64,000 bases of DNA from positions 8,566 through 72,565 of the forward strand of contig MGEK01000004.1 in the NCBI GenBank assembly GCA_001791325.1, in the 5' to 3' direction. Below the pieces are notes generated by a model that made no database searches, was not told the DNA's origin, and saw only the letters and a program-made list of their open reading frames with translations. Below are positions 21,357-31,527 of the stretch, piece by piece. The translations under genes were made by a program, and so were the position numbers. The number at the start of each line of letters is the position of its first letter. Within the stretch, counting starts at the first letter, position 1. Origin of the DNA: Candidatus Uhrbacteria bacterium RIFCSPLOWO2_01_FULL_47_25. GTDB lineage: Bacteria; Patescibacteriota; Patescibacteriia; GWA2-46-9.

Positions 21357-21357
21357 T

Positions 21358-21512
21358 GAAGAATATGGAATATTGAATATGGAATATAGGGATGTGCTGT
21401 GAAGAATATGGAATATTGAATATGGAATATAGGGATCGTTGATTTGAGAAAATTAATTGAAGAATATAAAATTTAGAATATAGGGATCGAACGGTGGAGA
21501 ATATTGAATATA
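21358..21512 (+). repeat. GAATAT(N) heptamer arrays upstream of four-helix-bundle gene 1
   Basis: Several runs of gaatatg/gaatatt/gaatata; 21382-21527 is identical to 26922-27067. Confidence 0.9.
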
Positions 21513-21516
21513 CATT

Positions 21517-22953
21517 ATGAAAAGTGAGATTAAGTCATTTAGAGATTTGGTGGTATGGCAAAAAGCATCTGCTTTGGCAACTTTGCTGTATAAAGTTACG
21601 GAAAATTTTCCTAAAACAGAAATATATGGAATAACAAGTCAGATGCGACGGGCAGCGGTATCGGTTTCTTCTAATATTGCCGAGGGATTTAAAAGAAATT
21701 CAAAAAAAGAAAAAGTGCAGTTTTATTCAATGGCTTATGGGTCTCTTTCGGAATTGGAAAGTCAAATAGAAATTTCTTTTCGTCTGGAATATTTAACAAT
21801 TACTAACTACGATCAAATTTTATCCGCAATCAACGAAGTTTCTCGACTCCTAGACGGTATTATTAGGTCCACTAATAGAAATTATCAAAGTAGGTTTGAT
21901 GTTCTCGTTGCTGTATCTATATTCTATATTCTATATTCTATATTCCCAATCTCACCGGCTAATGCTGGTGAAATTGGTCTGGCTGTCACAAGAAACCGCT
22001 TTGATATTGAGATGCTCTCGGGCGACACATACAAGGGTGATTTAGCCGTGTATAATAAATCAGCAGACGCCGCCTTGCCTGTGCACGTGGAATTGGCGCT
22101 CTGGAACATTAAAGAGGATTCTGAAGATATTGAGTTTGTTCAAGCGGAGTCATTGCTTAATGCCACACGTTGGTTTGAGGTTCAGCCGAAAGATTTTATT
22201 TTAGACCAAGGCGGCGATAGGCAAATTAAGTTTGAGATCACGGCTCCCAAAGACGCTTCGCCCGGAGCGTACTTGGTAATGATGCGTTTTCAGGCGGTTT
22301 TGCCGGAACATTATTTTTTGAAAGAAGGTCCAAGATTTTTGCCCGAGATTGGCGTTTTGTTTTTCATCAATGTCAGAACACTGGCCATTGACAGCGCGGC
22401 AGAAAATAATCGCTTAAATATCGTTTCATTTGAACCCGAAGGGACGCATCGCTTAACTTTTATTGACCGTTACGTGGTAAGTCCTGCCAATGCTGGCGTA
22501 TTTGACGAAGCAGTAAAAAAATTAGTGGCTAAAATTGAAAATAAAAGCATCTATTATTTTAAAGCCTCCGGCTTTGTCGTTATTAAAAACTTGTTTGGCC
22601 AGACAGTGTCACTCATTAAAATTCCCGAAAAATTTTTACTTCCCAACCGTACTCGCAGCATCCCCATCACCGTTATCACACCACCAACGGAACAATCAAA
22701 ATCCAATATTCTATATTCCATATTCTATATTCTTCAACAACAAACATACCTCGGCCCCTACACCGCGACACTAACGCTCAACGTTCCATCAAGCAATGGG
22801 GGAGTAGAGCCAATTTCAGAATCAATCAATTTCTGGATTATCCCATGGAAGTTTTGGTCGGCCGTTATTATTATAGCGTTGTTAATCGCGTTCATTATAT
22901 TAAAATTGCGGCGTCGGCTTCGGCCGGCACTAAGTGCGCTGATCGGACGCTGA
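21517..22953 (+). CDS. Four-helix-bundle (23S rRNA IVP/Avd-like) domain fused to a DUF916/WxL-interacting-like surface protein
   Basis: FRDLVVWQKA, FPKTEIYGITSQMRRAAVSVSSNIAEG, YGSLSELESQ; then hydrophobic IFYILYSIFP-ISPANA; Ig-like body; C-terminal TM and basic tail. Confidence 0.85.
   Translation: MKSEIKSFRDLVVWQKASALATLLYKVTENFPKTEIYGITSQMRRAAVSVSSNIAEGFKRNSKKEKVQFYSMAYGSLSELESQIEISFRLEYLTITNYDQILSAINEVSRLLDGIIRSTNRNYQSRFDVLVAVSIFYILYSIFPISPANAGEIGLAVTRNRFDIEMLSGDTYKGDLAVYNKSADAALPVHVELALWNIKEDSEDIEFVQAESLLNATRWFEVQPKDFILDQGGDRQIKFEITAPKDASPGAYLVMMRFQAVLPEHYFLKEGPRFLPEIGVLFFINVRTLAIDSAAENNRLNIVSFEPEGTHRLTFIDRYVVSPANAGVFDEAVKKLVAKIENKSIYYFKASGFVVIKNLFGQTVSLIKIPEKFLLPNRTRSIPITVITPPTEQSKSNILYSIFYILQQQTYLGPYTATLTLNVPSSNGGVEPISESINFWIIPWKFWSAVIIIALLIAFIILKLRRRLRPALSALIGR
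21916..21945 (+). repeat. TCTATAT heptamer array (reverse complement of the upstream array), translated in frame
   Basis: tctatattctatattctatattctatattc encodes SIFYILYSIF. Confidence 0.9.
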
Positions 22954-23030
22954 ATATGTGGAACGCTGAATTTACGCTGATAACGACGCTGATCGGACGC
23001 TGAATATGTGGAACGCTGATATTTACGCCG
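22937..23030 (+). repeat. ACGCTGA array upstream of the GxxExxY gene
   Basis: About 9 cgctga/cgccga units, including a 33-bp direct repeat (22937-22969 = 22987-23019). Confidence 0.9.
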
Positions 23031-23031
23031 A

Positions 23032-23463
23032 ATGGATATGAACAAGGTTAAGGATTTCTTGTATGAAAAGGAGTCGTATCAGATTAGAGGAGCGTGTTTT
23101 GATGTTTATAAAGCATTTGGTGGAGCATTTAAGGAAAAAATAGTGGATCGGGCGCTTACTAAATCTCTGGCTAAACGCGGATTAAAAGTGGACGAACAAA
23201 AACGTATAAACATTTTGTATGATGGTGAAAAAATTGGTACCTATATTCCCGACAAAATCGTAAATGATGCTATTATTTTAGAAGTGAAGGCAAAAAGTTT
23301 TATCACCAAAGATGATATAGATCAATTTTGGAAATATTTGAAAGGGTCAGACTATAAATTAGGATTCCTTGTAAATTTCGGTCCGGCAAAATTAGAAATA
23401 AAAAGAGTGGTATATGATTCAGCCAGACCAGTTCGGCGTGTTTCGGCGTCCTTATCGGCGTGA
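23032..23463 (+). CDS. GxxExxY family protein (PD-(D/E)XK nuclease fold)
   Basis: SYQIRGACFDVY..FGGAFKEKIV; IPDKIV..IILEVKA; LGFLVNFG. Confidence 0.88.
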   Translation: MDMNKVKDFLYEKESYQIRGACFDVYKAFGGAFKEKIVDRALTKSLAKRGLKVDEQKRINILYDGEKIGTYIPDKIVNDAIILEVKAKSFITKDDIDQFWKYLKGSDYKLGFLVNFGPAKLEIKRVVYDSARPVRRVSASLSA

Positions 23464-23505
23464 ATCAGCGTTTATATCAGCGTATTCATCAGCGTAAGTC
23501 GGCGG
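23432..23505 (+). repeat. TCAGCGT/TCGGCGT array downstream of the GxxExxY gene
   Basis: About 7 units; reverse complement of the upstream unit. Confidence 0.9.
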
Positions 23506-23552
23506 TATTATGGTTATCCACAGGCGGGCTTGTGTCAATTCTATTACTTTTA

Positions 23553-23561
23553 TGATATAAT
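23553..23561 (+). promoter_or_regulatory. Extended -10 promoter element
   Basis: TGaTATAAT about 50 bp upstream of the ATG at 23614. Confidence 0.5.
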
Positions 23562-23613
23562 TCATTCAATATTAATAAGTCCTAATTATTAAAAATCGTA
23601 ATTCATTCTAAAT

Positions 23614-24882
23614 ATGGTCAAAAAACTACGCAAATATCAACGATTTACAGTAGTTTACGTTTTAATTTTTTCAATAATAACTTTCTTTTCGGGCGCGCAT
23701 ATTTGGGGGCTGTTGCCGCCAGCTCGTGCGGCTGCTCTCACCAGTGTGAAAGACGTGCTCTCGACGTCAGAGTCGGGCGCCAACGCGAACCATACAATTC
23801 AGTTCGTAACTCCTTCAGGAGTACTACTCTCAACCCATACAGTGACACTCACATTTGACGGCTCACCATTGTTTGACGTTAGCGGCCTTGATGAAGATGA
23901 TGTGGATATGAGCGAAGACACTACGGGTGATATTGGCGATTGTGGCTCATTTGCTACGGCTAAGACCACTATAGCTGGAGCACCTGACGGCACCAACTGG
24001 GGTGTTACTTTCTCCGGTCAGACCATTGTATTCACACATCCTTCTGGTGATGATAACCAAGACATTGCCGCCGGTGCGTGTGTTCAGATAAGGATCGGCG
24101 ATGGTACTGTGGCTATGGACTCAGGCACGGGCGATGCTCAGATTAATAATCCGGCTGGTAACGGCGATGGTGTGGCTGAAATTGAAACAATTGACATTGC
24201 CACCGATAGCACCGTAGACGACAGCGGCACAGCTATGACCGCCACCGTAGAGGGTGTGGCCGTGAGTGTTACTGTTGATGAAAGTTTAGCCTTCTCTATA
24301 GCGGTCGTAACATCCGGTAACTGTACAGAAGGCGGAGGCGGGACCGCGGTTACCACGACAGCAACAACCGTGCCGTTTGATAGTATCGCGCTTGCCGTGA
24401 ACACTTTTTATAGAGGTTGCCATGATTTGACGGTGAGCACTAATGCGGCAAACGGCTATACCACAACTGTCGAAGAAAATAAAAGTTTAATTCGCACCGG
24501 TACTGATGGGGGCGACAAGACAATCAATGATGCTATTTGTGATGCGGGTGACGACTGTACCTCGGCCATTGGTGCTGGGACGACGTCGCCTTGGGCCACG
24601 GCCACTGCCAATCACGGTTTTGGCTATACATGCAGTGGCAGCGCTTGTGACGCTGCTTTCGCTACAGCTGCTGAATTTAATGCCTTTCCTTGCCGTAGTT
24701 CAACAGCGTCAGATTGTGATCCTGTTGATGGACCACTGGCTCTGGCTACCCCGATTTCGTCAGGAGGAGTTCCCGTCAGTGCTCAAACTTCAAGAATTGT
24801 ATACAAGCTTTCGTTTTCCGCCACTCAACCGGCTGGAACTTACGGTAACACTATTACCTATATAACAACCCCGACATTTTAG
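23614..24882 (+). CDS. Secreted WxL-like surface protein
   Basis: Signal peptide ending PARA; LTVSTNAANGY, GFGY, QPAGTYGNTITYITTPTF homologous to the giant protein's C-terminus. Confidence 0.75.
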   Translation: MVKKLRKYQRFTVVYVLIFSIITFFSGAHIWGLLPPARAAALTSVKDVLSTSESGANANHTIQFVTPSGVLLSTHTVTLTFDGSPLFDVSGLDEDDVDMSEDTTGDIGDCGSFATAKTTIAGAPDGTNWGVTFSGQTIVFTHPSGDDNQDIAAGACVQIRIGDGTVAMDSGTGDAQINNPAGNGDGVAEIETIDIATDSTVDDSGTAMTATVEGVAVSVTVDESLAFSIAVVTSGNCTEGGGGTAVTTTATTVPFDSIALAVNTFYRGCHDLTVSTNAANGYTTTVEENKSLIRTGTDGGDKTINDAICDAGDDCTSAIGAGTTSPWATATANHGFGYTCSGSACDAAFATAAEFNAFPCRSSTASDCDPVDGPLALATPISSGGVPVSAQTSRIVYKLSFSATQPAGTYGNTITYITTPTF

Positions 24883-24959
24883 TTGAGCATTGGACGGTAT
24901 TGAATAATTTAATATCATTATCAACTCCGCCCACATGATACTATAGCGGTAATGTTGTC

Positions 24960-25904
24960 ATGAAAATTCGCTACTCGCCATCATCCTTTATTGCTTTTTT
25001 AGTCGGTGGATTAACGGTGGGCGTGATCATGTCGCCAACCGCAGTGATGGCGCAAGCAGTAAAAACTCTCACTATCTCACCCCTCACTTTTGAACTAACC
25101 GCCAATGCGGGCGAGACTATATCTAATGTCTTAAAGATATATAACAATAACGATTTTAATATATCAGCCAACATTGATGTTGAAGATTTTGCTCCGGCCG
25201 GAGAGACCGGTCAAGCAGTGGTTACCGAACCGCAGGAGGATAATACCTATTCTTTGGCTCGTTGGATTACGGTTGAGGAAGAAACATTTGAAATAGAGGC
25301 ACAAAATTTTCGGCCGATTACTTTTCATGTTAACGTTCCCCTGAACGCCGAGCCGGGAGGGCACTACGGAACAGTACTTGCTTCTATCGCCGATGGTGGT
25401 GGCGAGGGCGGAGTTAGCGTGGCATCTAAAGTAGGCGCGCTTTTACTGCTTCAGGTGGCTGGTACGGCTAAAGAGTCTCTAAACGTCGCCAGTATGGGAG
25501 CGCCGAATTTTTCCGAATACGGGCCCGTAACCATTGCCACGAGATTCCAAAATACTGGCACTGTCCATTTAAAGCCGCGGGGGTTTATTTTAGTGCAAAA
25601 TATGTTTGGCCAAGAAACAGCCAAATTAAATTTAGACCAGAAAAATGTGTTGCCTAACTCGGTGCGTAGGATAGAATCAAAATTAGACGAGAAATGGCTA
25701 TGGGGTAAATATACGGCGACCTTGACGGCGATTTACGGTTCAACCAATGAGCCACTTTCTTACACCACAACTTTTTGGGTGATCCCTTGGCGGGTGAGTT
25801 TGGCTGTCGGCCTCATACTATTGATCGTTTTCATTATTCTTTATCGGGCTCGTCGGCGGATATTTTTGGCGCTCAAAATTCTCTTAAAGGGTGAACATAG
25901 TTGA
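24960..25904 (+). CDS. DUF916/DUF3324-like (WxL-interacting-like) membrane-anchored protein
   Basis: Signal peptide; LTISP..FEL; PGGHYG; FQNTGTVHLKPRG; VLP..VR; C-terminal TM and RARRR. Confidence 0.7.
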   Translation: MKIRYSPSSFIAFLVGGLTVGVIMSPTAVMAQAVKTLTISPLTFELTANAGETISNVLKIYNNNDFNISANIDVEDFAPAGETGQAVVTEPQEDNTYSLARWITVEEETFEIEAQNFRPITFHVNVPLNAEPGGHYGTVLASIADGGGEGGVSVASKVGALLLLQVAGTAKESLNVASMGAPNFSEYGPVTIATRFQNTGTVHLKPRGFILVQNMFGQETAKLNLDQKNVLPNSVRRIESKLDEKWLWGKYTATLTAIYGSTNEPLSYTTTFWVIPWRVSLAVGLILLIVFIILYRARRRIFLALKILLKGEHS

Positions 25905-25970
25905 AGAATATAGAATACAGAATCTAGAATAGAGAACTTGGAACATGGAATTTAAAACATGGAATTTAAA
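25902..25970 (+). repeat. Degenerate GAA-heptamer array that includes the next gene's start codon
   Basis: gaatata gaataca gaatcta gaataga gaacttg gaacatg gaattta aaacATG gaattta. Confidence 0.8.
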
Positions 25971-26894
25971 ACACAGATTATCATTTTTTGCGGTTGTGTT
26001 GTCGTTGGTTCATTTTTCGTCATAGCGAGCAACCACGTTATTGCGCAATCAAATTCGCAGGGCGTAGGCGTTTCCATTACTATTGAGCAAACAACAACGC
26101 CGCCTCCCACTCCGCCGCCTAGCGGTGGCGGAGGAGGTGGTGGTGGAAGTACAGTTATTGTTCCATCGCCAACGGATATCGCCACATTTGTAATGAAAGG
26201 TAAGGCTTATCCAAAAGCGATAATAACGATACTGCGCAACGGCGCAGTTACTAAAACGCTGATTGCTGGAAACGACGGATTATTTGAAGCGACCATCTCC
26301 GGATTGCCTGCTGGTTTGCAGACTTTTGGCGTGTACGCGCAAGATACTGAAGGGAAAAAATCCGTCACTTTAAGTTTTACCTTAAGCCTATTGGCTAATA
26401 TGACGACCACGCTGGAGGGCTTAATTATACCGGTAACCATAGAAATATCTTCGCCGGTCGTAAATCAAGGTAATCCATTATTTATATATGGTCAGTCGTT
26501 TCCGGAAAGCAATATCAGTCTTTTTATTCAATCAAAAGAAGTAGTTAAAACGACAGCCACTAAGCCGAGCGGCAATTGGCGATATGAATTGGATACGGCG
26601 CCATTGGATTTGGGCGATCACGCGGTTCGCGCGAAAGCGCAGGCCTTAACCGGCGAGCAGAGTGAGTTTTCAGAAACCAAATTTTTTCGGGTAATACCGA
26701 AAGGAGCTCATGGGACGCCCGGCAGTTGTCCTGCGGATTTGAATGATGATAATCGTGTAGATATTACTGATTTAAGTATTTTATTGTATAATTGGGGCAC
26801 GCCAAAGAATACTCGCGCTGATTATAATAAGGATGGCAGGGTTGATATCGTTGACTTTTCAATTCTGCTTTACTATTGGGGAACGTGTGTATAG
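25959..26894 (+). CDS. Secreted Ig-like protein with a C-terminal dockerin domain
   Basis: Duplicated Ca-binding loops DLNDDNRVDITDLSILL / DYNKDGRVDIVDFSILL; Pro/Gly linker. Confidence 0.85.
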   Translation: MEFKTQIIIFCGCVVVGSFFVIASNHVIAQSNSQGVGVSITIEQTTTPPPTPPPSGGGGGGGGSTVIVPSPTDIATFVMKGKAYPKAIITILRNGAVTKTLIAGNDGLFEATISGLPAGLQTFGVYAQDTEGKKSVTLSFTLSLLANMTTTLEGLIIPVTIEISSPVVNQGNPLFIYGQSFPESNISLFIQSKEVVKTTATKPSGNWRYELDTAPLDLGDHAVRAKAQALTGEQSEFSETKFFRVIPKGAHGTPGSCPADLNDDNRVDITDLSILLYNWGTPKNTRADYNKDGRVDIVDFSILLYYWGTCV

Positions 26895-26898
26895 TTGT

Positions 26899-27052
26899 AA
26901 GAATATGGAATATAGAATATTGAATATAGGGATGTGCTGTGAAGAATATGGAATATTGAATATGGAATATAGGGATCGTTGATTTGAGAAAATTAATTGA
27001 AGAATATAAAATTTAGAATATAGGGATCGAACGGTGGAGAATATTGAATATA
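26899..27052 (+). repeat. GAATAT(N) heptamer arrays upstream of four-helix-bundle gene 2
   Basis: Same arrays as 21358-21512. Confidence 0.9.
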
Positions 27053-27056
27053 CATT

Positions 27057-28595
27057 ATGAAAAGTGAAATTAAGTCATTTCGAGATTTGATAGTTTGGCA
27101 AAAATCTTCCAATTTAGCAACTTTAATATATGGCATTACTAACGATTTTCCCAAGAGCGAAATGTATGGTTTGACCAGTCAAATGCGCCGAGCTGTTGTA
27201 TCAGTTTCATCTAACATTGCAGAAGGCTTCAAACGAAACTCTAGAAAGGAGAAGGTACAATTCTACACAATGGCCTATGGTTCTCTTTCAGAATTAGAAA
27301 GCCAGATTGATATTTCAAAAAATCTTCACTATTTATTGGAAAGCCAATACCAAACAATAATTGAGGCAATTAACGAGGCGTCAAGGCTTTTGGACGGTAT
27401 TATTAGAGCCACTAACAGAACTCACAACGATCGTTTTTTTTCGCCTGCCATCTCTGTACTACTTGCCGTTGCGATCTCTGTATTCTATATTCAATATTCT
27501 ATATTCCCAACAGCGCCTGCCGGCGCTGTTTCGTCCGTGCGGCTTTTTTTTATTCCGGAAAATTCCGAGGTCGTTGCCGGTGATATTATAAAAAGTGACA
27601 TTTGGGTAGACACGCAGGGAAATACTATCAATGCGGTGGATATTAGTGTTTCTTATGATTCAATGGTTGAGCTTTTAAGCGCGGAGAAAAATGATTCAAT
27701 TTTGAATTTATGGGTTGAGGAACCGAGCTTTTCCGATACTACGCGCCGCGCTAAATTTACCGGCGGCCGTACTGGCGGGTTTGAGGGTCGGGGAATAATT
27801 GGGCAGTTGTATTGGAGAAATGAAAACGCCGGGGGAAAAGCAACTTTAGGCTTTGATGAGTCGTCTGTTGTTTTATTAAATGATGGATTGGGTACTCCAG
27901 CGGAGCTAGAGAGACGACAATCGGATTATAATATATTGGCCAAGGGAGAGGGTTTATTGAATTTATCTTCGGCCTCGCACCCGGATGAAAATAAATGGTA
28001 TAATCAGCCGTTTGTGCGTTTAAGTTGGCCGACAATAGAAGGCGCGATTTACAGCTATTTAGTTACGAGGGATCCGGCTCAACTACCAGATGACACGTTG
28101 GACGAGCCAGTAGGCAATATTAAGCTAAGCGACCTGACGGACGGCGTATATTATTTTAAGCTTAAACAAAAAAAACTCGGCGAAGAAGGGTGGTCCAGTG
28201 TTGTTTCCAGACAAATTAAAATTGACAAAACGCCGCCGGAATTTATTGAGGCAAAGATTTCACGTGATTCGGAACTTGTTCAAAATAAGTATTTCGCGAG
28301 CTTTGCCGCTAACGACAAGGCATCTATAGCTCGTTATGAAATAATTGAAGGGGATAGCGCTCCGGAGCCGATATTGCAGCCGCCATTTATTTTAAAAAAT
28401 CAAGATAGAAGCGTGGCCGTTACAATTAGAGCCATTGACGCGGCCGGTAATTACAAGGACATAATTATACCGGCCCTGACTTGGTGGCAAAGGCCGTCAA
28501 TTATTTTATATGTGAAAATAGGGCTTATTGTCGGGCTAGCTCTAATTGCAGCGGTGATAATAATTGTGATTATCAGGAGAAAAAAATCAATATAA
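27057..28595 (+). CDS. Four-helix-bundle domain fused to a cohesin-like, membrane-anchored protein
   Basis: IVP motifs as at 21517; VFYIQYSIFP-TAPAGA; INAVDISVSYD..LWVEEP..VLLNDGLGT; SASHPDENKWY; C-terminal TM. Confidence 0.83.
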   Translation: MKSEIKSFRDLIVWQKSSNLATLIYGITNDFPKSEMYGLTSQMRRAVVSVSSNIAEGFKRNSRKEKVQFYTMAYGSLSELESQIDISKNLHYLLESQYQTIIEAINEASRLLDGIIRATNRTHNDRFFSPAISVLLAVAISVFYIQYSIFPTAPAGAVSSVRLFFIPENSEVVAGDIIKSDIWVDTQGNTINAVDISVSYDSMVELLSAEKNDSILNLWVEEPSFSDTTRRAKFTGGRTGGFEGRGIIGQLYWRNENAGGKATLGFDESSVVLLNDGLGTPAELERRQSDYNILAKGEGLLNLSSASHPDENKWYNQPFVRLSWPTIEGAIYSYLVTRDPAQLPDDTLDEPVGNIKLSDLTDGVYYFKLKQKKLGEEGWSSVVSRQIKIDKTPPEFIEAKISRDSELVQNKYFASFAANDKASIARYEIIEGDSAPEPILQPPFILKNQDRSVAVTIRAIDAAGNYKDIIIPALTWWQRPSIILYVKIGLIVGLALIAAVIIIVIIRRKKSI

Positions 28596-28601
28596 ACATA
28601 T

Positions 28602-29996
28602 ATGCGAGGGTGGGCGCTTAAATTATTCGTTTCAATTTGCCTAATAACGCTAACGAGTGTCACTGAAGTAAATGCTGCTGGCACCGCTTCTCTATCCCTC
28701 TCGCCGTCACAGGGCGCGTTTATTGTTGGCAACTCTTTTGATGTTTCCATATTTGTTAATACCAATGGCAATGATATTAATACGATAGAGGTTAATGTAA
28801 AATTTTCGCCAGATACCTTGCAAATAGTCAGTCCCAGCGCCGGTCAATCATTTATTTCGGTATGGATTACCCAACCTACGTTTTCCAATGAGCAGGGGAC
28901 TATTCATTTTGCCGGAGGGCTTCCTTCGCCAGGCATTAATACCACGGCTGGACTTGTTTCCACTATAACATTTAGGGCAAAAGCTCCGGGCACTGGCACC
29001 ATAGAAATTTTACCTAACTCAAAAGTTCTCTTGAACGACGGAAAGGGAACAAATATTTTAACTTCAGTTACCAAGGGCTCATACAGTCTAACTTTAGCGG
29101 CTCCTGGCGGTCCAGAAATTTCGTCCTCTACTCATCCTGACCAAAACGCCTGGTATAAAAACAATAATCCGGTTTTTAGCTGGACACGAGGTTTAAGCGC
29201 GGCGCAACCGGTTGAAAATATGACGGAATTTAGCTGGTGGTTTGATCAGGATCCAAGAGGGTATGCTGATAATAAAGCTGACGGAACGGGCTTAAACGCT
29301 TCATATAGCGACGTTCAGAGTGGTATTTGGTATTTCCACGTAAAAGGCAAAATTAGCGATTTATGGGGGCAACAAAGCTCATACGCGGTGCGTATAGATA
29401 ACACGCCGCCAGCCGCTTTTACGCCAAACATATCGCCGGACGGATCAAAGCCAAATGAGCGGCGCATCGTGTCATTTACTACTACTGATCAGCATTCCGG
29501 CCTTGATCATTACGAAGTTAAAGTATTGCCGCTTGATGAAAATACTGGCGCGGAGCCATTTTTTACTGAACATACGAGTCCGTGGCTGACCACTTCTTTG
29601 GGTATTGGTCGCTATCAAATAATTGTGCGCGCTTTTGACAAGGCTGGGAACTGGCAGGATGGGACTTTGACAATCACGAATGAACCGCCGCCGCCAACCT
29701 TAAAAGAGAAATTCAATCAGGGTATTATAGTGAATGGAAGATTCATTGCCTGGTGGATGATTCTTACCGGCAGTATTATTTTATTGCTGTTACTGCTGCT
29801 CATTTTGATATTGTGGCGCCGCGCGCATGAGGATGTTTCAGAGCAAATACAAGAGACTTTGGAAAAAGCGCACGAGCGCTTGCGGCGCCAGCATGGAAAA
29901 ATTGCCGCTGAACTTAAAGAAGAAGAGGAGGTTAAAGAAGTGTTAAGTCAGGAATTAAAAGATTTAGAAAAGGACGATCACGATAAGGGAGAGTAG
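28602..29996 (+). CDS. Cohesin-domain membrane-anchored surface protein
   Basis: Signal peptide; ASLSLSP..VG.SFDVSI; TITFRAK; VLLNDGKGT; SSTHPDQNAWY; TM and coiled-coil tail. Confidence 0.8.
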   Translation: MRGWALKLFVSICLITLTSVTEVNAAGTASLSLSPSQGAFIVGNSFDVSIFVNTNGNDINTIEVNVKFSPDTLQIVSPSAGQSFISVWITQPTFSNEQGTIHFAGGLPSPGINTTAGLVSTITFRAKAPGTGTIEILPNSKVLLNDGKGTNILTSVTKGSYSLTLAAPGGPEISSSTHPDQNAWYKNNNPVFSWTRGLSAAQPVENMTEFSWWFDQDPRGYADNKADGTGLNASYSDVQSGIWYFHVKGKISDLWGQQSSYAVRIDNTPPAAFTPNISPDGSKPNERRIVSFTTTDQHSGLDHYEVKVLPLDENTGAEPFFTEHTSPWLTTSLGIGRYQIIVRAFDKAGNWQDGTLTITNEPPPPTLKEKFNQGIIVNGRFIAWWMILTGSIILLLLLLLILILWRRAHEDVSEQIQETLEKAHERLRRQHGKIAAELKEEEEVKEVLSQELKDLEKDDHDKGE

Positions 29997-30018
29997 CGGG
30001 TAGTGGCAGTTTTGAGTT

Positions 30019-30122
30019 GAAGAATATAGAATATTGAATATGGAATATGGGTATTGAACCGCGAAGAATATAGAATTTAGAATATGGGTTTGAAATTAGA
30101 AGATATAGAATTCAGAATATAG
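30019..30122 (+). repeat. GAATAT(N) heptamer arrays
   Basis: gaatata gaatatt gaatatg gaatatg ... gaatata gaattta gaatatg. Confidence 0.88.
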
Positions 30123-30126
30123 GTGT

Positions 30127-31527
30127 ATGAAAAGCGAAATTAAATCGTTTAGAGATTTGATTGTGTGGCAGAAGGCAGCCGCCCTTGTGTTGATCGCTAT
30201 ATTCTATATTCTATATTCTATATTCCCAATCTCGCCAGCTAACGCTGGCTCTGCCTCACTCTCATTGGTTTCCTCAAAGCGAACTTACACCGTCGGCGAA
30301 AATGTCGCGGTTAGCGTTATTTTGAGCACGGGAGATGTTAGCATTAACGCGGCAAGCGCTACGATTACGTTTGACCAAAAGAAGCTCTCAGTAGTAAGCG
30401 TTTCTCGTTCCGGTTCAGTCTTCACTTTATGGGCGGAAGAACCAACCTTTTCAAATTCTCAAGGAGTAATTAGTTTGGGCGGAGGGTTGCCAACGCCGGG
30501 TTTTTCCGGTAGGGGAGCGATTATTATCAGAATTACTTTTCGGGCAAAAGAAGAAGGCACAACGGCTGTCAGATTTGCCGGCGGAACGGTTTTGGCGAAT
30601 GACGGACTGGGCACTAATGTTTTAGCAGGACTCACTGGTCTTGATTTAACTATTCAGGGAAGGGCGGTCGTTACAACGCCGCCGGAGAAACCCCTAGAAA
30701 GAGCGCCGGTTGTTACCCCACCAGGTCAAGTGCCGTTGGCGCCGGTTATTTTGTCGCGTACGCATCCTGACGAGTCTGGTTGGTATCGCAATGCCCAGCC
30801 GGGTATTATTTGGGAATTACCGTCTGATGCTAAGGGAGTAAGTGTTAGTATTGATCAAAACGCGAATGGTGATCCCGGCACAACCTCTGAAGGGCTATTT
30901 AACTTTTACAGCGCCAAGGAGCCGCTTAAAGATGGCGTTTGGTACGCCCATGTCAGGGTAAGCAATAGTCGCGGTTGGGGGGCGATTGGTCATTACCGCT
31001 TAGCTATTGATACCGCGCCGCCGATGATTACAACGGCAAAATTGGTGTTTGAAGCAGCCAGAACCAAGGCCATAGAATTTGCCACTAGCGACCCCTTATC
31101 ATCAACCGACTATGTATCTATTTTAGTCAATGGAGAACAGGTCGCCTCGCAAGCTAGCTCGCCATACACCTTACCGTCATTAATTCCCGGCAATCATGTG
31201 ATTACAGTAATAGCCTATGATAAAGCAGGCAATAAAGCGTCCCAGGATCTCTATTTGAGCATTTTGAGCCAAGAAATATCAAGCGCGCCAAGAACAAGTC
31301 TTTTAATCATTATCATTCTTATTCTCGCCTTGATTTTGCTGGTTATATTTATCATCTGGCACTTCTATGAACGCCATCATCGCCGGGCCATTTTGGAAGA
31401 ATTAGCCAAAACCAGGCGAGAGCTTAAAGGAATGTCGCAAAAGTTACGCTCACTGGAGGGTAAATTAAATGCCCATGCTAATGCAAATGTCAGTGAAAAG
31501 TCCCAAACAACAATTAAAAAAATATAG
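30127..31527 (+). CDS. Cohesin-domain surface protein whose signal peptide is a deleted four-helix-bundle cassette
   Basis: MKSEIKSFRDLIVWQKA joined to LVLIAIFYILYSIFPISPANA; cohesin-like body; TM and coiled-coil tail. Confidence 0.83.
   Translation: MKSEIKSFRDLIVWQKAAALVLIAIFYILYSIFPISPANAGSASLSLVSSKRTYTVGENVAVSVILSTGDVSINAASATITFDQKKLSVVSVSRSGSVFTLWAEEPTFSNSQGVISLGGGLPTPGFSGRGAIIIRITFRAKEEGTTAVRFAGGTVLANDGLGTNVLAGLTGLDLTIQGRAVVTTPPEKPLERAPVVTPPGQVPLAPVILSRTHPDESGWYRNAQPGIIWELPSDAKGVSVSIDQNANGDPGTTSEGLFNFYSAKEPLKDGVWYAHVRVSNSRGWGAIGHYRLAIDTAPPMITTAKLVFEAARTKAIEFATSDPLSSTDYVSILVNGEQVASQASSPYTLPSLIPGNHVITVIAYDKAGNKASQDLYLSILSQEISSAPRTSLLIIIILILALILLVIFIIWHFYERHHRRAILEELAKTRRELKGMSQKLRSLEGKLNAHANANVSEKSQTTIKKI

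Follow-up and report, generated by a model that had tools for sequence, protein, structure and literature searches.

Why do genes for surface proteins begin with a four-helix bundle that is usually encoded on its own, and how could such proteins still be exported? The question is raised by a 64,000-nucleotide stretch of Candidatus Uhrbacteria bacterium RIFCSPLOWO2_01_FULL_47_25 (contig MGEK01000004.1), referred to here as the window, in which three open reading frames (ORFs) with a common start carry arrays of heptamer repeats in frame. The ORFs are named 21517, 27057 and 30127 after their first positions in the window. The source genome comprises 1.2 Mb in 40 contigs. The answer reached here is that a heptamer-armed cassette of the intervening-sequence (IVS) type has probably been fused in frame to a surface gene and is tolerated ahead of a predicted site for leader peptidase. 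The tolerance probably stems from this location, since cleavage there would remove the passenger from the surface protein. On the best reading, the arm of the cassette overwrites part of an existing signal and does not supply export. The protein family, the armed cassette and the heptamer repeats are already known; the recurrent in-frame fusion to leaders is the new aspect, and it is real.

The ORFs and arrays were re-found as in a preliminary description of the locus, with the common start, GAATAT-type arrays upstream of all three genes, and TCTATAT-type arrays in frame followed by PANA or PAGA. Two of the ORFs hold a full bundle and the third a reduced one, also as described. PF05635 matched residues 9-113 of 21517 and 27057 with 129 and 125 bits (cut-off 33.8) and TIGR02436 matched the same residues with 119 and 116 bits (cut-off 24), while about 20 bundle residues are left in 30127. 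Classification of the bundles as similar to 23S rRNA intervening-sequence proteins and to Avd held for PF05635 and TIGR02436 and failed for the Avd model NF033474 (39 and 36 versus 80 bits). PF22296 scored 34 and 37 against a cut-off of 40. In the predicted structure of 21517 the bundle helices were placed at residues 8-28, 39-59, 63-89 and 95-120 with high confidence and were followed by a separate helix (124-142), a pair of beta-sandwich domains and a helix at the C-terminus. According to this prediction the bundle folds independently, ahead of that separate hydrophobic helix. The bundle model matched Xcc0516 (PDB 2gsc) with a TM-score of 0.92 by target, a root-mean-square deviation of 0.7 and a sequence E of 1e-20. 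The domain is basic, with an isoelectric point of 9.2-9.4.

The basic region, hydrophobic core and A-x-A site of a Sec/signal peptidase I substrate were all present, as judged by sequence pattern and homology. The predicted signal lies about 125 residues into 21517 and 27057; in 30127 it is N-terminal and 40 residues long. The array had been taken to be the core of the signal peptide. It is in the signal position, but only the C-terminal 10 of the 16-21 hydrophobic residues are array-encoded, and the most hydrophobic 17-residue window of 27057 (127-143) lies mostly upstream of the array. The position follows from the A-x-A site of the arm-derived peptide, which aligns with the mature start of 45 homologues bearing ordinary signals of 18-50 residues. 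A perfect TCTATAT array is free of stops in all frames and encodes a constant hydrophobic seven-residue cycle, so that such an arm can be read through. Stops at this locus were found in the GAATATA unit only, with none in GAATATG, and most left arms start at or near the stop codon of the upstream gene. A rule that left arms always have stops and right arms never do was considered and rejected, there being a weak trend only (56 and 43 of 83 loci). Nine arrays were counted in 21358-30245, compared with a mean of 0.002 (maximum 1) over 500 codon shuffles. Features beyond the preliminary description are a second in-frame right arm within 21517 (22703-22736), a lone left arm over the start of 25959 and a standalone GxxExxY cassette with heptamer arms of its own (22937-23496). 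Neither a bundle nor a matching right arm was seen at the lone left arm.

Leaders were then compared at orthologous genes. The comparison with cassette-free orthologues that had been proposed could be made directly, since 45 of the 61 homologues of 21517 have an ordinary short signal with the same predicted cleavage point. A fused bundle was found in 13, a fused GxxExxY domain in two and no leader in one. Mature starts and predicted cleavage points align across these homologues, and the fused leaders are scattered on the tree of the 21517 mature domain. The same gene order was found without a cassette in L064. The bundle is a separate ORF just before or overlapping the start of a host gene of the same family in L035, L062 and L063, and on the bundle tree the fused bundle of P0071 has the split one of L063 as its sister. 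The 21517 orthologue of the same-genus L021, 80% identical in the mature part, carries a GxxExxY domain and a different heptamer array as hydrophobic core, and P0066 (mature part 86% identical to that of 21517) likewise carries GxxExxY and a heptamer segment. The L021 orthologues of 27057 and 30127 (69% and 71%) have short, bundle-free leaders built on other heptamers; the L021 orthologue of 28602 carries an FYILYS arm that 28602 of the source genome is without. P0147, an orthologue of 30127 (mature part 68%), retains residues 1-21 and the final bundle helix. The in-frame bundle deletions of 30127 and P0147 are different, and the first ATG and the frame are kept in both. Among cohesin-type ORFs from 30 loci, 1/58 was fused (the one described here) and 5/58 had a period-7 signal region.

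Comparison shows a passenger that is exchangeable (several bundle types or GxxExxY) and deletable. Orthologous genes form a graded series, from those without a cassette through split and fused forms to swapped and deleted ones, which shows a repeat element writing part of a signal. Domestication of the bundle as a needed export module, as originally proposed, was not supported, because most homologues have a plain signal, close relatives carry GxxExxY in place of the passenger, and two different deletions have removed it. The leaders of 21517 and 27057 have 2 differences in 158 bases whereas their bundles are saturated at synonymous sites, which points to recent gene conversion through the arms. 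The doubled depth of the common leader contig indicates two real copies.

Recurrence of the fusion was assessed in proteins of 262-837 residues (277 candidates), the protein searches being limited to proteins of 256-262 residues or more. Bundles were found in 65 of these clusters, two of them from this locus. A hydrophobic segment stands directly behind the bundle in 65/65. Forty-six also end in a C-terminal membrane helix (Sec-type surface proteins), 16 have a prepilin-like motif, as set by a hand-made pattern, and three have neither feature, one of these being pilin-like in look and two truncated in look. The Pfam family N_methyl matched 12 of the 63 other clusters, seven over cut-off. In the prepilin class the arm-derived peptide precedes the cleavage motif and lies in the discarded part. 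Three more fusions were found in genomes of the class, two prepilin-like and one Sec-type. Downstream of standalone cassettes, 13/41 genes had a hydrophobic or prepilin start by the same crude rule, and most of the 41 were cytoplasmic enzymes; the contrast with the fused set is indicative only, because the searches differed and relatives are non-independent. Among the 150 matches listed for PF05635 in the class (448 further), five were in frames of more than 250 residues (~3%), two of them from this locus. In 400 genomes of the phylum the bundles had 32 non-self matches, all standalone and 44-55% identical, and a phylum search with the mature sequence of 21517 gave no hit in any further genome at E 1e-25. 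Where homologues of the fused proteins carry a name, it is from Patescibacteria, and the cluster of the closest GxxExxY-bearing homologue has a member named Candidatus Uhrbacteria. The fused surface proteins are annotated only as 'four helix bundle protein'. The bundle tree has seven label changes, at least three of them forced by well-supported branches. A single clade of fused bundles was rejected (approximately unbiased test, p 0.00076; 29 versus 54 rows, one long-branch row left out). On this tree, fused bundles have more than one origin. No description of full in-frame fusions into Sec or prepilin leaders, or of the exchange of unrelated passengers at one leader, was found in the main texts of open-licence literature, and listings for bundles with arms in the Candidate Phyla Radiation held nothing relevant either.

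The following sequence of events is proposed. The stop of the passenger and the start of the host gene would be lost where the next gene is exported, and the arm would replace part of the host signal while the cleavage site stays. The preprotein would be inserted by SecA/SecYEG and cut by signal peptidase I, leaving the bundle on the cytoplasmic side, anchored through the used signal helix. Prepilin peptidase would free the bundle in the prepilin class. A cut at A-x-A would give a mature protein equal to that of the unfused homologues. The arms could allow passengers to be exchanged, by recombination or gene conversion. The bundle would be selected for its own activity, most likely in service of the cassette and not of export. 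SecA, signal peptidase I and prepilin peptidase are encoded by the source genome; SRP54 and FtsY gave no match over cut-off in this genome, which is rated 100% complete. RodZ, with a 111-residue N-terminal element before its membrane helix, is targeted by SecA, and such elements disfavour the signal recognition particle, according to the available part of the report (PMC5674894). Because SecA handles RodZ, a folded domain before a signal should be no barrier in principle.

The series suggests that passenger domains can be accommodated safely in cleavable leaders. If this holds, the bundle would be released one-for-one with a pilin or surface protein, which provides a testable setting for the orphan S23p/four-helix-bundle family. 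Predictors that read the N-terminus only would miss the export signal of these surface proteins. A stronger version may be considered, tentatively and with more doubt than confidence, in which a selfish cassette lineage has specialised in cleavable leaders: the arm encodes a signal-like sequence and the host peptidase cuts the passenger out, as with an intein without splicing chemistry. If true, such cassettes would insert before secreted proteins or prepilins and gain their expression, and would supply new signal peptides continually, as is seen in the deleted forms.

Several observations weigh against a passenger that is simply tolerated in leaders. dN/dS between the bundles of 21517 and 27057 is 0.064 (dS saturated), conservation is higher in the bundle than in the mature part for 62/73 pairs (non-independent), and the core motif is intact in 58/65 fused bundles; this conservation fits a useful host role as well as a selfish one. 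Of the fused bundles sampled, 22 fall together on the tree, with moderate support, and this too fits either role. Relative to L021, the 22703-22736 arm has 2 synonymous changes at ~12 sites versus 70% elsewhere in 21517, which shows constraint or homogenisation of this arm at the level of nucleic acid. No mobilising enzyme or target-site duplication was identified for the cassette; patchy presence and exchange at orthologous sites, as in mobile elements, were found. P0019, P0020, P0071 and P0075 represent all four combinations of two bundle leaders with two mature variants, a set that was put aside as proof of switching because of an identical block of ~120 residues and possible assembly chimeras. 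GxxExxY cassettes also stand in frame inside genes of class relatives (L163-L171) that were read from their translations as leucyl-tRNA ligase, RecG (three genomes), LepA and RadA. Since these are cytoplasmic enzymes, in-frame tolerance of GxxExxY is not confined to leaders. A methionine at residues 101-135 in 59/65 fused proteins makes an internal start possible for most, and 27057 has a TTG at codon 112.

Three side observations concern arrays inside genes. The 22703-22736 arm sits within the chaperone-like domain of 21517, at a place where the homologues either lack a segment or bear a short helical one, often aromatic; several carry array-like peptides there, so that arrays overwrite internal helices too. 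The same L163-L171 group includes GxxExxY N-terminal to a MurB-like protein, a second RadA-like protein and a prepilin, again as named from translations. The leucyl-tRNA-ligase-like gene of the source genome has an in-frame heptamer array (C1:18027-18069) where L166 has a whole GxxExxY cassette.

The possible internal methionine is the basis of an improbable alternative, in which one frame has two starts: an internal start in the last bundle helix would give a signal of 40-45 residues, and the long ORF would have arisen incidentally through loss of a stop codon. In favour of this, some split forms have an ATG of their own. However, none of ATG, GTG and TTG occurs in frame between codons 80 and 152 of 21517, and purifying selection acts on the mature part of 21517 (dN/dS 0.064 versus L021, dS saturated); 21517 is therefore most simply made as a full fusion. 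Both deletion derivatives retain the first ATG, and the same methionine is usual in standalone bundles too.

Also unlikely is a domesticated control module, in which the bundle binds the arms, a hairpin gates translation, and both are kept to regulate the operon. The preliminary description had proposed gating by paired arms, and folding of leader plus array gave paired arms in all three cassettes (z of -5.2 for 30005-30250 and about -2 for the two long cassettes), but the start is not consistently buried, with unpaired probabilities of 0.32-0.67 in the start region versus 0.34-0.46 for whole fragments. In 21517, which has two identical left blocks and two right arms, both right arms are paired in the predicted fold. 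Such a module would fit the conservation of bundles while fused and the few synonymous changes in the internal arm. It is opposed by the absence, exchange or deletion of the passenger in homologues, by the single fusion among the 58 cohesin-type host ORFs and by the stems themselves, since 130 stems had 155 G-T versus 156 A-C mismatches, without G-U bias, and the sense duplex was more stable in 81 loci and the antisense duplex in 66. Gating of translation by pairing is accordingly unsupported, and nothing in the data favours an mRNA switch over pairing or conversion at the level of DNA. An RNA-strand signature was sought in duplex energy and mismatch type, neither of which has a sense-strand bias, and was rejected, as was start-codon occlusion, for which the effect was inconsistent. 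Both long left arms hold an identical sigma70-like match (10/12; 21444-21472 and 26984-27012) that could yield a transcript without most of the arm; this is a lead only, the promoter scan being inflated by the arrays (53 versus 23 expected).

Quite improbable is the reading of the arms as RNase III sites at which operon mRNA is cut or untranslated copies are destroyed, with translation through the right arm as protection. The available part of a report on the Coxiella IVS describes a 28-bp stem with heptamers that is cut by RNase III (PMC4990558), the stems here are 27-50 bp, the RNase III gene is present in the source genome and the left arms mostly begin at or near an upstream stop; against this, a cut in the right arm would hit the coding sequence of the signal, and arm pairing is without strand bias. 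No stop or frameshift was found between bundle and surface domain. An artefact of assembly or sequencing, by which a standalone bundle gene became linked to the adjacent gene, can largely be dismissed even though repeats flank the junctions and contigs break there, as contigs from sequencing runs not flagged as a possible source spanned the junctions of cassette 1 (X12 21829-22282, X10 21661-21946, X9 21498-21945) and of cassettes 2 and 3 (X9 27038-27779, X12 27337-27607, X9 29670-30226) with 0 differences, and 63 further clusters have the same architecture. The fused, tolerated passenger is retained as the preferred reading, and the features of the locus are collected in Table 1.

Table 1. 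Cassette parts, ORFs and mature proteins of the locus, in window positions
Feature	Position	Strand	Remarks
Left arm and 5' leader, cassette 1	21357..21516	+	Four GAATAT blocks; directly after stop of gene for 4556-residue protein
ORF 21517	21517-22953	+	478 aa, unbroken
Four-helix bundle, N-terminal part of ORF 21517	21517..21876	+	PF05635/TIGR02436
Predicted signal segment, 21517	21901..21966	+	Codons 129-150; right arm 21916-21945 (codons 134-143) and A-N-A
Mature two-immunoglobulin (Ig)-domain protein, 21517	21967..22953	+	C-terminal membrane helix; fold closest to WxL-interacting protein (WxLIP)
Second right-arm array in 21517	22703..22736	+	In frame, codons 397-406
GxxExxY (TIGR04256) standalone cassette	22937..23496	+	Arms 22937-23020 and 23432-23496; gene 23032-23463
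Lone left-type arm	25902..25973	+	Holds stop of 24960 and start of 25959
Left arm and leader, cassette 2	26897..27056	+	156/158 bases identical to cassette 1 leader
ORF 27057	27057-28595	+	512 aa, unbroken
Four-helix bundle, N-terminal part of ORF 27057	27057..27416	+	PF05635/TIGR02436
Right arm and A-G-A site, 27057	27477..27527	+	Arm 27477-27506, codons 141-150; predicted signal
Mature cohesin-like/Ig surface protein, 27057	27528..28595	+	C-terminal membrane helix
Left arm, cassette 3	30018..30126	+	Upstream of 30127
ORF 30127	30127-31527	+	466 aa, unbroken
Remnant leader, ORF 30127	30127..30246	+	~20 first bundle codons joined in frame to right arm and A-N-A
Right arm, cassette 3	30197-30225	+	In frame, codons 24-33, then A-N-A
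Mature cohesin/Ig surface protein, 30127	30247..31527	+	C-terminal membrane helix

The co-oriented surface genes of the locus encode the 4556-residue protein, 21517, the GxxExxY protein, 23614, 24960, 25959, 27057, 28602 and 30127. The protein 25959 bears a dockerin, and 27057, 28602 and 30127 are of cohesin type. The best fold matches of the 21517 mature part were WxLIP structures (E about 1e-10, low identity), and the mature product is likely, on the basis of its modelled fold, a pilus chaperone. Because this part folds most like WxL-interacting proteins, the segment 7686-31527 of the window is probably a Pam/WxL-type operon for a pilus assembled with a chaperone. A weak PF06030 match in 24960 was below cut-off. 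For the C-terminal part of 23614, considered as a candidate donor-strand pilin subunit, the single-sequence model had a predicted local distance difference test score of 33, and the nearest named atlas cluster was WxL (22%, score 0.85), which is a lead. The 4556-residue protein and 23614 have a similar C-terminus.

In general the cassette consists of a left arm, a passenger ORF and an inverted right arm, and it usually stands alone, ahead of all kinds of genes. Complementary flanking stems were found at 130/145 bundle loci of other genomes compared with 4/145 shuffled controls, and PF05635 was present in 175/251 genomes of the class. The passenger GxxExxY (TIGR04256) matches a PD-(D/E)XK nuclease family. 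By the set threshold the source genome has 91 period-7 arrays, ~40 of them of the GAATAT/TCTATAT family. Many are short gene-less hairpins, and two standalone bundle genes have arms of other heptamers. In two gene-less GAATAT hairpins (C6:13897-14029 and C24:38442-38548) the right arm encodes the N-terminal residues of a pilin-like protein and of a membrane protein. No reverse transcriptase (PF00078) was matched on the contig of this locus, the matches in the genome being on contigs C26 and C6 only. At C26:3477-5684 a reverse transcriptase like those of diversity-generating retroelements (DGRs) is split over two frames, with a candidate target gene upstream and its own Avd-like ORF on the opposite strand.

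Inteins and other self-removing insertions are foreign ORFs that stand in frame with a host gene and become harmless after translation, and in this they resemble the passenger described here. They differ in that no splicing domain or motif was seen here, and removal would need the leader peptidases of the host and would work at N-termini only. The likely host operon also has known counterparts. The available parts of the accounts of the Pam pilus operon of the Candidate Phyla Radiation (PMC13278184) and of the WxL/Elr pilus (bioRxiv 10.64898/2026.10.17.759780) describe chaperones with two beta-sandwich domains and a C-terminal membrane helix, as in 21517. The main text of the Pam paper makes no mention of four helix, cohesin or dockerin (PMC13278184), and in this the locus differs. 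The WxL system is reported as confined to Bacillota, from a RefSeq genus screen, and Patescibacteria are unmentioned in the portion available (bioRxiv 10.64898/2026.10.17.759780).

An earlier report, available in part, describes heptamer repeats within ORFs and close to start codons but gives no mechanism (PMC4679880). The closest counterpart of the whole cassette is the ORF-bearing 23S rRNA intervening sequence (S23p) of Coxiella burnetii, which, in the available part of its description, likewise has a PF05635 ORF within inverted arms and heptamers upstream of the start (PMC4990558). The cassette here is flanked by or fused to protein-coding genes and is not inside an rRNA gene; its right arm is translated and its ORF runs in frame into an exported protein. 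S23p of Coxiella is reported there as probably not made and decaying (PMC4990558), whereas the bundles here are conserved. The same fold is found in the DGR accessory protein Avd, in the part of its account available (PMC5758913), and in Xcc0516. For the order of domains, the nearest likeness is to RodZ and the autotransporter EspP, in which, by the available part of that report (PMC5674894), a long N-terminal element before the targeting helix is handled by SecA, as is proposed here. RodZ is described in the same portion as uncleaved, with an N-terminal domain that is its own functional part, whereas here the domain ahead of the helix is a passenger that can be exchanged, and the repeat encodes half of the hydrophobic helix.

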